From the IMG/VR virus record IMGVR_UViG_2703719354_000013, positions 1 to 4,235 of that record: a DNA stretch of 4,235 bases; one strand, written 5' to 3'. This DNA comes from a virus (Duplodnaviria; Heunggongvirae; Uroviricota; Caudoviricetes). Below are positions 1 through 4,235 of this stretch, piece after piece. The position numbers were made by a program, and so were the translations under genes. Positions within the stretch are counted from its first letter, which is position 1, and each line of letters starts with the position of its first letter. Below the pieces are notes generated by a model, which saw only the letters and a program-made list of their open reading frames with translations, was not told where the DNA came from and made no database searches.

Positions 1-9
1 TGAGTAAAC

Positions 10-17
10 GGGAGAGG
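10..17 (+). promoter_or_regulatory. Ribosome-binding site of I (GGGAGAGG)
   Basis: GGGAGAGG at 10-17 lies 11 nt upstream of the ATG at 29, directly after the in-frame TAA at 5-7. Confidence 0.55.
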
Positions 18-28
18 TATTCCGAAAA

Positions 29-706
29 ATGGCAACGACGAACGCATTCTGTCTGGCGTCACCGCCACTGGCACGCATCTGCCTTCACGGGGATTTACAA
101 CGATTTGGCCGCCGCCTCAGCCTGTACGTGAACACGGCAGCGGAAGCCATCCGTGCCCTGTCGCTGCAGGTGCCGGGATTCCGCCGCCAGATGAACGAAG
201 GCTGGTACCAGATACGTATTGCCGGTGATGACACGGCACCGGAGGCGGTGTATGCCCGCCTTCACGAACAACTGGGTGAGGGGGCGGTCATCCATATTGT
301 GCCGCGACTGGCCGGTGCAGGGAAAGGCGGACTGCAGATTGTGCTGGGGGCGGCAGCCATCGTGGGCTCTTTCTTCACGGCCGGAGCATCGATGGCAGCC
401 TGGGGTGCAGCGCTGAGTGCCGGCGGTTTTTCTGCCACCACGATGCTGTTTTCACTGGGTGCCAGCATGATTCTGGGTGGTGTGGCACAGATGCTGGCCC
501 CGAAGCCAAAAACACCGGAATACAGGGCAACGGATAACGGTAAACAGAACACGTACTTTTCGTCGCTGGATAACATGATTGCCCAGGGTAACCCTATGCC
601 GGTGCCTTATGGTGAAATGCTGGTTGGTTCACGACGGATATCCCAGGACATCAGCACCCGTGATGAGGGCGGAGACGGGAAAGTGGTGGTTATCGGGCGG
701 GGATGA
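29..706 (+). CDS. I: Phage tail assembly protein I (lambda gpI family), complete, 225 aa
   Basis: ATG at 29 is preceded by a GGGAGAGG Shine-Dalgarno at 10-17 and the frame is closed upstream by TAA at 5-7; stop TGA at 704-706. The translation (MATTNAFCLASPPLARICLHGDLQRFGRRL...GAVIHIVPRLAGAGKGG...NGKQNTYFSSLDNM...VVVIGRG) matches lambda gpI as I recall it in length (about 223 aa) and along its length, including the glycine/alanine-rich central stretch. A search was not run. Confidence 0.9.
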   Translation: MATTNAFCLASPPLARICLHGDLQRFGRRLSLYVNTAAEAIRALSLQVPGFRRQMNEGWYQIRIAGDDTAPEAVYARLHEQLGEGAVIHIVPRLAGAGKGGLQIVLGAAAIVGSFFTAGASMAAWGAALSAGGFSATTMLFSLGASMILGGVAQMLAPKPKTPEYRATDNGKQNTYFSSLDNMIAQGNPMPVPYGEMLVGSRRISQDISTRDEGGDGKVVVIGRG

Positions 707-744
707 AAATAAAAAAATCCCGCAGAGTTAGCGGAGCTGCGGGA
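707..744 (-). terminator. Rho-independent terminator-like hairpin plus U-tract on the - strand
   Basis: An 8-bp stem, TCCCGCAG (718-725) pairing with CTGCGGGA (737-744), has an 11-nt loop. Read on the minus strand the hairpin is followed immediately by TTTTTTTATTTT (complement of the A-run 707-717). On the + strand no U-tract follows the hairpin, so it is unidirectional for minus-strand transcripts. Confidence 0.45.
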
Positions 745-751
745 GAGAACG

Positions 752-871
752 ATGAAGATTAACGTTATGGAGTTATTTTTCAGGCATCAAAAAAGTAACG
801 CAGCGTCATTATTGCGGCTACAGGCAATTGCCGGAAATGTGAAGAGTTTCAGAAATTTTATTCCGTCATGA
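752..871 (+). CDS. Small hypothetical ORF, 39 aa, basic peptide MKINVMELFFRHQKSNAASLLRLQAIAGNVKSFRNFIPS, in the I-J spacer
   Basis: ATG at 752 lies 6 nt downstream of a GGGAGAG/GGAG Shine-Dalgarno (741-747); stop TGA at 869-871 is followed 1 nt later by a strong intrinsic terminator. It sits in an AT-rich insert (about 38% GC over 751-870 by my count). I recognise no homolog, and it is below the length cut-off of the ORF track. It could be non-coding. Confidence 0.3.
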   Translation: MKINVMELFFRHQKSNAASLLRLQAIAGNVKSFRNFIPS

Positions 872-872
872 C

Positions 873-904
873 ACAGGCACCCTCCGGGGTGCCTGTTGTT
901 TTCT
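873..904 (+). terminator. Rho-independent terminator-like hairpin plus U-tract on the + strand
   Basis: A perfect 10-bp stem, ACAGGCACCC (873-882) pairing with GGGTGCCTGT (887-896), closes a TCCG tetraloop (883-886) and is followed directly by TGTTTTCT (897-904). It lies between the small ORF stop and the J Shine-Dalgarno. Confidence 0.5.
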
Positions 905-930
905 GGCATAAACAGATTCAGACATCAGAC

Positions 931-940
931 AGGAGAGGGG
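931..940 (+). promoter_or_regulatory. Ribosome-binding site of J (AGGAGAGGGG)
   Basis: AGGAG at 931-935 and a G-run at 936-940 lie 6-11 nt upstream of the GTG start at 947. Confidence 0.6.
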
Positions 941-946
941 GACAGA

Positions 947-3900
947 GTGGGTAAAGGGGGCGGCAAGGGGCACACACCGCGTGAGGCGAAGGATAATCTC
1001 AAATCCACGCAGATGATGAGTGTGATTGATGCGATTGGTGAGGGACCGATAGAAGGCCCGTTGAAGGGACCGCAGAGTATCCTGGTGAACAAAACCCCGC
1101 TGACGGACACGGACGGTAATCCCGTGATACACGGTGTGACGGCGGTCTGGCGTGCCGGGGAGCAGGAGCAGACACCACCGGAAGGCTTTGAGTCCTCCGG
1201 AGCTGAAACCGGACTGGGCGTGGAAGTGACGAAGGCAAAGCCGGTGACGCGCACCATTACGTCCGCGAACATTGACCGCCTGCGGGTTACCTTCGGGGTG
1301 CAGTCACTGGTGGAGACCACCTCAAAGGGTGACCGTAATCCCTCTTCTGTCCGGCTGCTGATTCAGCTTGAGCGTAACGGTAACTGGGTGACGGAAAAGG
1401 ATGTCACCATTAACGGCAAGACCACCTCGCAGTTTCTGGCGTCGGTGATTCTGGATAATCTGCCGCCCCGTCCTTTTAACATCCGGATGGTCCGGGAGAC
1501 AGCGGACAGCACCTCGGACCAGCTGCAGAATAAGACGCTCTGGTCGTCATACACCGAAATCATCGATGTGAAACAGTGCTACCCTAATACGGCGATTGTG
1601 GGCCTGCAGGTGGATGCGGAGCAGTTTGGTGGCCAGCAGATGACGGTGAACTACCATATCCGCGGTCGCATCATTCAGGTACCGTCAAACTATGACCCGG
1701 AAAAACGCACTTACAGCGGTATCTGGGACGGCAGCCTGAAACCGGCATACAGCAATAACCCGGCCTGGTGCCTGTGGGACATGCTGACCCACCCGCGCTA
1801 CGGCATGGGAAAACGCCTGGGGGCGGCGGATGTGGACAAGTGGGCACTGTATGCCATCGGGCAGTACTGTGACCAGACGGTCCCGGATGGTTTCGGGGGC
1901 ACAGAGCCGCGGATGACCTTCAATGCGTACCTGTCACAGCAGCGTAAGGTCTGGGATGTCCTGGGGGATTTCTGCTCGGCGATGCGCTGTATGCCGGTAT
2001 GGAACGGCCAGACGCTGACGTTCGTTCAGGACCGCCAGTCGGATGTGGTGTGGCCGTACACCAACAGCGATGTGGTGGTGGATGATAACGGCGTGGGGTT
2101 TCGCTACAGCTTCAGCGCCCTGAAGGACCGCCACACGGCGGTGGAGGTGAATTACACCGACCCGCAGAACGGCTGGCAGACCTCCACGGAACTGGTGGAA
2201 GACCCGGAAGCCATACTGCGCTACGGGCGCAACCTGCTGAAGATGGATGCGTTCGGTTGCACCAGTCGCGGTCAGGCCCACCGTGCCGGGCTGTGGGTGA
2301 TAAAGACCGGACTGCTGGAAACGCAGACGGTGGATTTCACGCTCGGGTCACAGGGGCTGCGTCACACACCCGGTGACATTATTGAAATCTGTGATAACGA
2401 CTATGCCGGGACCATGACCGGCGGACGTGTCCTGTCCATCGATGCCGCCAGCCGCACCCTGACGCTGGACCGTGAGGTGACCCTGCCGGAGACCGGTGCC
2501 GCCACGGTGAACCTGATTAACGGCAGCGGTAAGCCGGTGAGCGTGGCCATCACTGCACACCCCGCGCCGGACCGGATACAGGTCAGCACCCTGCCTGATG
2601 GTGTGGAGACATACGGTGTATGGGGACTCTCCCTGCCGTCACTGCGTCGTCGCCTGTTCCGCTGTGTCTCCATCCGGGAAAACACGGACGGCACCTTTGC
2701 CATCACGGCGGTGCAGCACGTACCGGAAAAAGAAGCCATCGTGGATAACGGGGCCAGCTTTGAGCCGCAGTCAGGCACCCTGAACAGCGTTATTCCACCG
2801 GCAGTGCAGCACCTGACGGTGGAGGTGAGCGCGGCTGACGGTCAGTATCTGGCACAGGCGAAATGGGACACGCCGCGGGTGGTGAAGGGTGTGCGCTTCA
2901 GTCTGCGCCTGACCAGCGGAAGCGGAGAAGACAGCCGTCTGGTGACCACCGCCATCACTGCGGATACAGAGCATCGTTTCAGTGGTCTGCCGCTCGGGGA
3001 ATACACCCTGACAGTCAGGGCAATTAACAGTTATGGCCAGCAGGGGGAACCGGCCACCACCACGTTCAGGATTAATGCACCTGCGGTACCCGCCACGATT
3101 GAGCTGACACCGGGCTATTTTCAGATAACAGCGGTCCCGCGTCTTGCGGTGTATGACCCGACGGTACAGTTTGAGTTCTGGTTTTCGGAAACGCGGATTA
3201 CCGATATCAGGCAGGTTGAAACCACAGCCCGCTACCTTGGCACGGGGCTGTACTGGATAGCCGCCAGTATCAATATCAAACCGGGCCATGATTATTACTT
3301 TTATATCCGCAGTGTGAACACCGTTGGCAAATCGGCATTTGTGGAGGCTGTTGGCCAGCCGAGTGATGATGCATCCGGCTATCTGGATTTTTTCAAAGGA
3401 GAGATAGGGAAAACCCATCTGGCTCAGGAGTTGTGGACTCAGATTGATAACGGTCAGCTTGCGCCTGACCTGGCGGAAATCAGAACGTCCATCACGGATG
3501 TCAGTAATGAAATCACGCAGACCGTCAATAAGAAACTGGAAGACCAGAGTGCAGCGATCCAGCAGATACAGAAGGTTCAGGTTGATACAAATAATAATCT
3601 GAACAGCATGTGGGCTGTGAAGCTGCAACAGATGAAGGACGGACGCCTTTATATTGCGGGTATCGGTGCCGGTATTGAGAATACGCCAGCAGGAATGCAG
3701 AGTCAGGTGCTGCTGGCGGCAGACAGGATTGCGATGATTAATCCTGCGAATGGCAACACAAAGCCGATGTTTGTTGGTCAGGGCGATCAGATATTCATGA
3801 ACGACGTGTTCCTGAAACGCCTGACGGCTCCCACCATTACCAGCGGCGGTAATCCTCCGGCATTTTCCCTGACACCGGACGGAAAGCTGACCGCTAAAAA

Positions 3901-4235
3901 TGCAGATATCAGTGGCAGTGTGAATGCGAACGCCGGGACGCTCAACAATGTCACAATTAATGAGAACTGTCAGATTAAGGGGAAACTGTCAGCCAACCAG
4001 ATTGAAGGCGATATAGTCAAAACAGTGGGTAAGGCTTTTCCGCGGGACTCCCGGGCACCGGAGCGGTGGCCATCAGGGACCATTACCGTCAGGGTTTATG
4101 ACGATCAGCCGTTTGACCGGCAGATTGTTATTCCGGCGGTGGCATTCAGTGGCGCTAAGCATGAGAGAGAGCATACTGATATTTACTCCTCATGCCGTCT
4201 GATAGTGCGGAAAAACGGTGCTGAAATTTATAACC
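947..4235 (+). CDS. J: Host specificity protein J / central tail fibre (lambda gpJ family), 5' complete, 3' end runs off the window
   Basis: The frame is open from GTG at 947 to the last base with no stop, about 1096 codons. The N-terminus [22 protein letters not shown] aligns with lambda gp[23 protein letters not shown], and long blocks match ([131 protein letters not shown]). AGGAG at 931-935 with a G-run at 936-940 precedes the GTG. It is absent from the supplied ORF track presumably because it has no in-window stop codon. Confidence 0.93.

Follow-up and report, generated by a model that had tools for sequence, protein, structure and literature searches.

A probable minus-strand gene for a prophage Hfq-dependent small RNA of the EcOnc22/PasB kind, located between I and J in a lambda-like tail operon

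The DNA analysed here, referred to below as the window, is a stretch of 4235 nucleotides (positions 1 to 4235 of the IMG/VR virus record IMGVR_UViG_2703719354_000013) that represents the K′-I-J section of a lambda-like tail operon. This report deals with the intergenic spacer between tail assembly gene I and host-specificity gene J. We estimate at about 0.85 the probability that this spacer holds, on the minus strand, i.e., opposite to the tail operon, the gene for a prophage Hfq-dependent small RNA (sRNA), an EcOnc22/23/24 variant of the PasB family. The genes and the spacer are arranged as follows.

29–706, plus strand: tail assembly gene I, an open reading frame (ORF) of 225 amino acids known from the ORF list and its translation, with the TGA stop codon at 704–706
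707–946: I-J intergenic spacer of 240 bp, about 180 bp more than the 60-bp lambda-type junction
947–4235, plus strand: the 5′ 3.3 kb of host-specificity gene J, with a GTG start codon and the Shine-Dalgarno sequence GGAGAGGGGGA at 933–943

The name of gene I was taken from the annotation of VT1-Sakai and RefSeq (I / tail assembly protein). The J reading frame continues for 1096 codons without a stop up to the end of the window, and J is annotated in related records. In lambda, I ends at 15444 and J starts at 15505, which leaves a spacer of 60 bp; the spacers of HK629 and PhiR29_2 are likewise 60 bp long. A preliminary description of the window, made from its letters alone, had contrasted the 240-bp spacer with a few tens of base pairs in lambda and had proposed an alignment of junctions from relatives as a check, and this comparison bears the contrast out. 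The same description gave the spacer an AT-rich core of about 38% GC against about 57% in early J, and we obtained 38.3% for positions 751–870 and 56.7% for 961–1020 (56.7% for the entire window). Twenty-one 120-nt windows have a GC content of 40% or less and all of them start between positions 740 and 760, so this is the sole AT-rich spot in 4.2 kb. Three terminator-like sites are present between positions 500 and 1200 (0.6 ± 0.9 in shuffled sequences), and fold z-scores are −3.0 for the plus strand of the spacer, −3.5 for the plus strand of 860–946 and −3.7 for the minus strand of 706–801. Both terminators named in the preliminary description are indeed there, a plus-strand hairpin at 873–896 followed by a T-run and a minus-strand one at 718–744 followed by U7. 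Contrary to what had been stated, they are not convergent: the minus-strand terminator lies at the left edge and the plus-strand terminator at the right edge, so that they face outward and by themselves imply no overlapping convergent transcripts.

The features assigned to the sRNA gene, including published signals projected from near-identical loci, are listed below; crosslinking and analysis of cDNA is abbreviated as CRAC and crosslinking, ligation and sequencing of hybrids as CLASH.

711–801, minus strand: predicted primary transcript of the sRNA, an EcOnc22-type member of the PasB family, 91 nt long if transcription starts 7 nt after the −10 element
718–744, minus strand: Rho-independent terminator hairpin in which 719–725 pairs with 737–743 (stem CCCGCAG/CUGCGGG) with one additional U-A pair (718/744)
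707–717, minus strand: U-tail of the terminator, U7 at 717–711 and then AUUU, adjoining the I stop codon
727–788, minus strand: recalibrated Hfq-CRAC peaks of EcOnc22/23/24, extending over the body of the RNA and the terminator’s 5′ arm
753–785, minus strand: exact match to the EcOnc22/23/24 half of RNase E-CLASH hybrids, GCCTGAAAAATAACTCCATAACGTTAATCTTCA
754–762, minus strand: conserved block UUAAUCUUC with invariant AUCUU, single-stranded, just 5′ of the terminator, a candidate seed
772–780, minus strand: (ARN)3 motif AAAAAUAAC, which may bind the distal face of Hfq and lies under the Hfq-CRAC peak
808–813, minus strand: −10 hexamer AATAAT of the predicted σ70 promoter of the sRNA, TATAAT in most variants
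838–853: CRP-like palindrome TGTGA-N6-TCAGA with one mismatch, upstream of the sRNA promoter (read on the minus strand, TCTGA-N6-TCACA at 853–838)

The strongest evidence comes from prophages Sp11, Sp14 and Sp15 of the enterohaemorrhagic Escherichia coli (EHEC) strain Sakai, whose I-J spacers match that of the window at 239 of 240 bases. The sole difference is C799, which is T in Sakai; with a start at 801, it would be among the three bases transcribed first. Table S2 of Tree et al. 2014 (PMC4104026) contains the homologous Hfq-CRAC peaks EcOnc22 (Sp15), EcOnc23 (Sp14) and EcOnc24 (Sp11), and a northern signal of ~85 nt is reported for EcOnc22, which is destabilised in the hfq deletion. Since Table S2 uses NC_002695.1, the offset to the current record NC_002695.2 was calibrated twice, with the start of the Stx1 phage late promoter PR′ and the terminator tR′ (Sy et al. 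2020, PMC7547250), which gave +136, and with the sequence of the EcOnc22/23/24 CLASH read (Waters et al. 2017, PMC5286369, Table EV7), which gave +135 to +137. With this correction, each of the three prophages has its peak between J and I, antisense to the tail operon, and the CLASH half is identical to the window sequence. On the tail-operon strand, Table S2 contains no Hfq-CRAC peak at these junctions. The window and EcOnc22–24 thus agree in locus, strand and, bar one base, spacer sequence; they differ downstream, where the J gene of the window is mosaic. Because of this mosaicism, no exact match to the whole window was found among 5426 complete E. coli genomes, and the best match is 96.7% identical.

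As a separate observation on coordinates, positions given for Sakai in the EHEC sRNA papers of 2014–2020 are offset by +135 to +137 bp relative to the current RefSeq record in the 2.17–2.93 Mb region; used uncorrected, they would put the EcOnc peaks on the plus-strand hairpin rather than on the sRNA.

The second line of evidence is PasB of enteropathogenic E. coli (EPEC), an 83-nt RNA encoded on the minus strand of NC_011601 (1466343–1466261) and detected with the northern probe AATCCCGCAGTGATCGCGGAGCT (Pearl Mizrahi et al. 2021, PMC8550237, Table S6). The abundance of PasB changes by log2 −6.8 and −2.4 in the hfq deletion, and 37 interaction partners were recovered by RIL-seq, in which interacting RNAs are ligated and sequenced (PMC8550237). 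In prophage PP6 of strain E2348/69, gene I stops at 1466255 and gene J begins at 1466496, which places PasB antisense within a 240-bp I-J spacer, with its 3′ end after the seventh U, 5–6 nt from the I stop codon; the probe sequence corresponds to the terminator region of several spacer variants. Over the sRNA, the window and PasB are 73.5% identical with gaps counted and fall into different 90%-identity clusters. They share position, orientation, the terminator stem, U7, AUCUU, the ARN block, the 5′ GCGUUA, the −10 element and the upstream palindrome. PasB differs in having five ARN triplets, against three in the window, and a near-consensus promoter, TTCACA-16-TATAAT, against a weak −35 element in the window. 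For loci identical or homologous to that of the window, the published record is that lysogens produce the RNA, that it can be crosslinked to Hfq and loses stability when Hfq is missing, and that it takes part in many Hfq-mediated RNA-RNA chimeras (PMC4104026, PMC8550237).

The element has therefore been published twice already under different names, EcOnc22–24 and PasB. The preliminary description, which recognised no described function for the insert, was right as to function and wrong as to the element itself, and the sRNA locus that it had mentioned as an alternative is what the spacer encodes. In the 2021 review of Sy and Tree (PMC7873438), EcOnc22 (= 23, 24) is given as “targets unknown”. 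The EcOnc papers report peaks and size and describe no I-J position, promoter or family. The distribution of PasB, and a seed just upstream of its terminator, are presented by Zhu, Shabalina and Storz 2026 (bioRxiv 10.64898/2026.05.13.724894). A connection between PasB and EcOnc22–24 is made in neither PasB paper, and “EcOnc” occurs nowhere in Zhu et al.; it seems, then, that the family link is unrecorded in the literature. What is added here is that EcOnc22–24 and PasB belong to a single sRNA family as variants of it, that the place of this family at the I-J junction is fixed and that it alternates there with sodC, that the family is more diverse and more often multicopy than BLAST searches with PasB only suggest, and that it has conserved ARN repeats, an AUCUU block and an invariant CRP-like palindrome. 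Table S6 of PMC8550237 gives EHEC homologues for PasA and PasD, and the corresponding PasB entry is empty.

To compare the family, 80 related loci were collected from IMG/VR, together with reference phages and the Sakai prophages, which yielded 81 I-J junctions with 38 unique spacers in the length classes 237–263, 341–347 and 854 bp. The sRNA region forms at least 10 clusters (single linkage, 90% identity). The terminator stem is kept in all unique spacers despite changes in the loop; among 21 variants, the stem is invariant and the loop ranges from 4 to 17 nt (11 nt in the window). In 36 of the 38 unique spacers a −10 hexamer, TATAAT in most, is found together with the upstream palindrome at a fixed spacing.

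The 240-bp spacer occurs at 2771 places in 802 of the 5426 complete E. coli genomes (median 3, maximum 9 per genome) and is never annotated; 100% identical copies are present in many EHEC O157, O103 and O145 genomes. The sRNA gene as such is detectable in 1229 of the 5426 genomes. Both NC_049945 and NC_011356, which are cited in the PasB literature, were matched by the 240-bp spacer search. When PasB alone is the seed, a blastn search probably misses part of the family (1158 hits reported, against the 2771 spacer places found here). As the locus has neither a RefSeq annotation nor an Rfam family, genome scans will go on reporting a “small ORF with terminators” there that lacks an explanation. 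The sRNA is of some interest because EHEC and EPEC strains carry several copies of it on Stx and other prophages. A search of genome contigs with the terminator pattern AAAAATCCCGCAG-N(4-23)-CTGCGGG was abandoned as too generic, since it retrieved unrelated terminators from many phyla.

The 3′ end of the window sRNA was placed by homology to PasB (1466261, after U7), so that the U7 tail terminates 4–5 nt from the I stop codon. The stem is 7 bp long, or 8 bp with the 718/744 pair. A U-tail of at least six residues after a Rho-independent terminator was taken as the requirement for the proximal face of Hfq, and the window has a 7–8-bp G+C-rich stem with U7. At the position of the ARN motif, at least three consecutive A-R-N triplets (3–5) are present in 31 of 32 sRNA sequences, although the letters vary by lineage (AAAAAUAAC, AAGAAUAAU, AGUAACAAAAACAAC, AAUAAAAACAAA; per-sequence shuffle P 0.000–0.05). 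The block UUAAUCUUC is the most conserved single-stranded stretch of the sRNA, and GCGUUA at the start of the transcribed sequence is conserved as well.

The minus-strand promoter became apparent only by comparing variants. Most variants have TTCACA 16 bp upstream of the −10 hexamer, which in other lineages reads GATAAT, GATAAA or TATCAT. The palindrome is the only match in the window to TGTGA-N6-TCACA with one mismatch or fewer (0.21 expected by chance) and is found in 36 of 36 unique spacers without sodC, with fixed half-sites, a variable N6 and a distance of 24 bp from the −10 hexamer (25 bp in one). A CRP-dependent promoter was taken to have its site centred near −41.5 or −61.5 from the start. 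The centre of the palindrome, 845.5, is at −44.5 from a start at 801 or at about −60 from 785/786, which is non-canonical until the start is known. Spot 42 is an sRNA repressed by CRP. PasB is commoner in overnight lysogeny broth (LB) than in DMEM and Spot 42 shows the opposite, with growth phase also differing between the two conditions. We regard the palindrome as a candidate CRP site that may control the sRNA promoter; this is a lead, circumstantial in nature, and not a finding. A Cra-like interpretation of the palindrome was weighed as well and is not put forward.

Several results weigh against the assignment of an EcOnc22-type sRNA gene to the window. Expression of the window RNA is taken over from loci that are one base apart. 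The 5′ end at 801 was derived from the promoter and disagrees with the detected 5′ end at 785/786 (PasB annotation and start of the CLASH read), which would make the RNA ~76 nt long here, the corresponding length being 83 nt in PasB; the shorter end could reflect a processing site, a second promoter or trimming by RNases. The −35 element of the window, TCCGGC, is weak, and a consensus scan of positions 500–1200 on either strand called no promoter in the window variant. RNAalifold applied to 21 variants revealed no covariation and no structure in the body beyond the invariant terminator, and neither strand of the whole window was matched by any Rfam 15 covariance model at E ≤ 1. Lastly, the sole CLASH partners recovered for EcOnc22–24 are yjbJ and ECs5349, and the yjbJ hybrids consist of 1–2 reads at a false discovery rate of 0.11–0.34, which is not significant, with the site within the coding sequence. 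In these hybrids, CCAUAACGUU of EcOnc22/23 (785–753) and AACGUUAUGG of yjbJ (678–709 of the comparison locus L090) share 10 nt of perfect complementarity.

If the assignment is correct, the sRNA gene would be compact and lie, as an insertion, between the stop codon of I and the plus-strand hairpin that precedes J, with the order, leftward on the minus strand, of palindrome, σ70 promoter, an AU-rich and mostly unstructured body of ~76–91 nt, and terminator. The RNA would act in trans, either as a base-pairing regulator or as a sponge of host and accessory transcripts, contacting Hfq with its U-tail at the proximal face and with its ARN motif at the distal face, as Tree et al. 2014 (PMC4104026) described for AgvB and AsxR. 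The seed may lie near the conserved block 5′ of the terminator, and the segments that vary between lineages may direct different prophage copies to different targets.

The anti-sRNAs AgvB and AsxR and the sRNA HnrS, all from EHEC lambdoid prophages (PMC4104026; PMC13502914), are similar to the window RNA in being short, prophage-borne, multicopy and Hfq-binding, with Rho-independent terminators, ARN motifs, a conserved 3′ part, a lineage-variable 5′ part and insertion sites of the moron type. They differ in sequence and site, and have validated targets (GcvB, FnrS, hha), whereas the EcOnc22–24/PasB-type RNA of the window has none. AgvB, AsxR, Esr41, STnc100 and similar families were excluded by the Rfam 15 scan, which matched none of them; AgvB and AsxR, moreover, sit downstream of PR′, and HnrS (EcOnc10–12) occupies a different locus, elsewhere in the late genes.

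A wider proposition may be entertained tentatively, and on balance we doubt it: PasB and EcOnc22–24 would constitute one large mosaic family of “sRNA morons” at the EHEC/EPEC-type I-J junction, engaging both faces of Hfq by means of (ARN)3–5 and the U-tail and acting as class-II-like sRNAs or as AgvB-like sponges, under the control of the CRP-like palindrome, with lineage-specific targets and possibly with action in cis on the tail mRNA of rival prophages. Were this the case, polylysogens with up to nine copies would carry a panel of catabolite-responsive regulators.

Less probable still, though the most serious rival to a trans-acting sRNA, is that the RNA works mainly in cis on the I-J late mRNA, through processing by RNase III or RNase E or through J expression, and likewise on the late transcripts of other lambdoid phages with the same spacer, whether co-resident or superinfecting. 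The plus strand over 711–801 is fully complementary to the sRNA by construction, the gene is always at the I-J junction, and the multiple spacer-matching places per EHEC genome (up to nine) make cross-talk between prophages possible. A cis role is made less likely by the fact that the complementary stretch reaches neither ribosome-binding site: complementarity ends ~130 nt before the J Shine-Dalgarno sequence and does not overlap I coding sequence, which leaves the RNA no direct means of blocking translation. It is trans-acting sRNAs that typically combine a strong dependence on Hfq with dozens of RIL-seq partners, lysogens, in which the sRNA is detected, contain no late mRNA, and spacers with sodC lose the promoter without obvious loss of tail genes. 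Pairing of the sRNA with the J ribosome-binding site was also considered and dropped, as it comprised a 6-nt match that, judged by eye, was not conserved in variants.

Two further alternatives depend on the plus strand of the spacer, where the following features lie.

752–871, plus strand: 39-codon ORF preceded by GGGAGAG, antisense to the sRNA body and promoter, judged non-coding
873–906, plus strand: hairpin with a T-rich tail; the stem at 873–896 has 10 pairs (7 of them G-C) and a loop of 4, and is followed by TGTTTTCTGG

The preliminary description correctly placed the 39-codon ORF behind a Shine-Dalgarno-like motif and took it for a cassette with translation of its own. A protein-coding moron would produce the 39-residue peptide from this Shine-Dalgarno sequence on an mRNA ended by the plus-strand terminator, and the arrangement (GGGAGAG 5–11 nt upstream of ATG, and a hairpin with a T-run directly after the stop codon) looks suitable. 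Conservation, judged on 27 unique short-class spacers, makes this reading very hard to sustain. The codon aligned to ATG752 is ATG in 15 of the 27 variants and ACG or ACA in 12, and the reading frame that runs from 752 to the stop codon at 871 is intact in 9, which is the one-third chance rate expected with unconstrained indels; ATG and the full frame occur together in only 6, and ORF lengths range from 7 to 43 amino acids. The apparent Shine-Dalgarno sequence is an arm of the minus-strand sRNA terminator stem, no plus-strand promoter was found by the consensus scan of 500–1200, and the lambda junction, which is without the ORF, also carries a plus-strand hairpin. RefSeq shows no gene in the I-J spacer at the spacer matches in complete E. 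coli genomes. We judge that the 39-codon ORF is not a gene and that it exists only incidentally, as sequence antisense to the sRNA.

A type I toxin-antitoxin-like locus or a sense/antisense RNA pair with transcripts ending at both terminators, which the preliminary description had also suggested, fares equally poorly. Two terminator-like sites on opposite strands within 200 bp and a small ORF antisense to the sRNA would suit such a pair. As the terminators face outward, transcripts from the central region would diverge; the tail-operon strand is devoid of Hfq-CRAC peaks in Table S2 at these junctions and of a called promoter, the plus-strand hairpin has a counterpart in lambda, which is without the insert, the ORF is not conserved, its 39-residue product is not hydrophobic in the manner of toxins, and no toxin-antitoxin RNA family of Rfam was matched. 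The idea that the spacer is neutral, whether as filler or as the remnant of something decayed, and travels with the EHEC-type J, for which hitch-hiking could account given the strict linkage to one J lineage (among 50,697 phage records, the long spacer occurs in 147 and a J N-terminus at least 90% identical to that of the window in 148), can practically be set aside in view of the published northern, Hfq-CRAC and RIL-seq signals and of a terminator stem, AUCUU, ARN periodicity, −10 element and palindrome half-sites that are invariant across at least 10 clusters while the sequence between them turns over.

The lambda-type J lineage (~77% identity) has the 60-bp junction. Spacers of 854 bp (L089, L083 and eight other loci) contain on the minus strand sodC, which encodes a Cu/Zn superoxide dismutase and has a terminator of its own (start at ~721 and stop at ~195 in spacer coordinates). 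Downstream of sodC these spacers keep a PasB-like body and terminator, and the −10 element, the −35 element and the palindrome are lost; hence the sRNA is either dead there or made only via read-through from sodC. Since sodC and other extra segments are found at the I-J junction, this junction is a true insertion hot spot, a moron site, whose cargo here is an RNA gene.

Phage morons were reportedly described by Juhala and co-workers in 2000, sodC of EHEC and Gifsy prophages being said to be an example. The window resembles them in carrying extra DNA of deviant composition between conserved late genes, with its own terminator, a predicted promoter and, according to the literature, expression from the prophage; it differs in that the cargo is a non-coding RNA and not a protein. 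Of the moron proposed in the preliminary description, the distinct insert relative to 60-bp junctions thus stands, with sodC at the same junction, and the protein cargo, whose ORF is not conserved, does not.

The plus-strand hairpin at 873–896 probably belongs to the I-J junction, by analogy of position, and not to the sRNA insert, because lambda, without the insert, has a positional counterpart. The 60-bp lambda spacer contains a G+C-rich hairpin with a U-rich tail in front of the J ribosome-binding site (−21 kcal/mol, z = −2.8); the two hairpin sequences are not alignable, and the analogy is positional only. Across 11 variants, 98% of the cells of the window-type hairpin pair, with one compensatory change of C-G to U-A and with G-U wobbles that pair on the plus strand only. 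Such a hairpin may act on plus-strand RNA not modified by Q or on the 3′ end of RNA that contains I, and antiterminated late transcription would read through it. In the 341–347-bp spacers (L055, L044 and others), ~100 bp of extra sequence is located between the sRNA promoter region and J (spacer positions ~160–346), and a different strong hairpin, AAAACCCCGGTATCTGCTGATACCGGGGTTT, replaces the 873–896 hairpin; the only ORFs in this class, of 60–63 amino acids, are spurious.

Some smaller differences were noted around the two tail genes. The start of gene I is annotated inconsistently, RefSeq giving 579 nt from an internal start (Sakai ECs_2945 and ECs_2721; L005, L006), whereas the older VT1-Sakai record and the window ORF give a gene of 678 nt that, as in lambda, overlaps K at the 3′ end of the latter. 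The 30 bp nearest to the J Shine-Dalgarno sequence vary by spacer class (GGAGAGGGGGACAGA, AAAGGGTGAGACA, GGGGAAGGCTGT), and the 7-nt unit CAGACAT just 5′ of it, at 916–932, is present in two copies in the window and in four in the L087 spacer. The start codon of J is GTG in the window and ATG in lambda and E2348/69 (position 947 in the window, 806 in L003 and 997 in L091).

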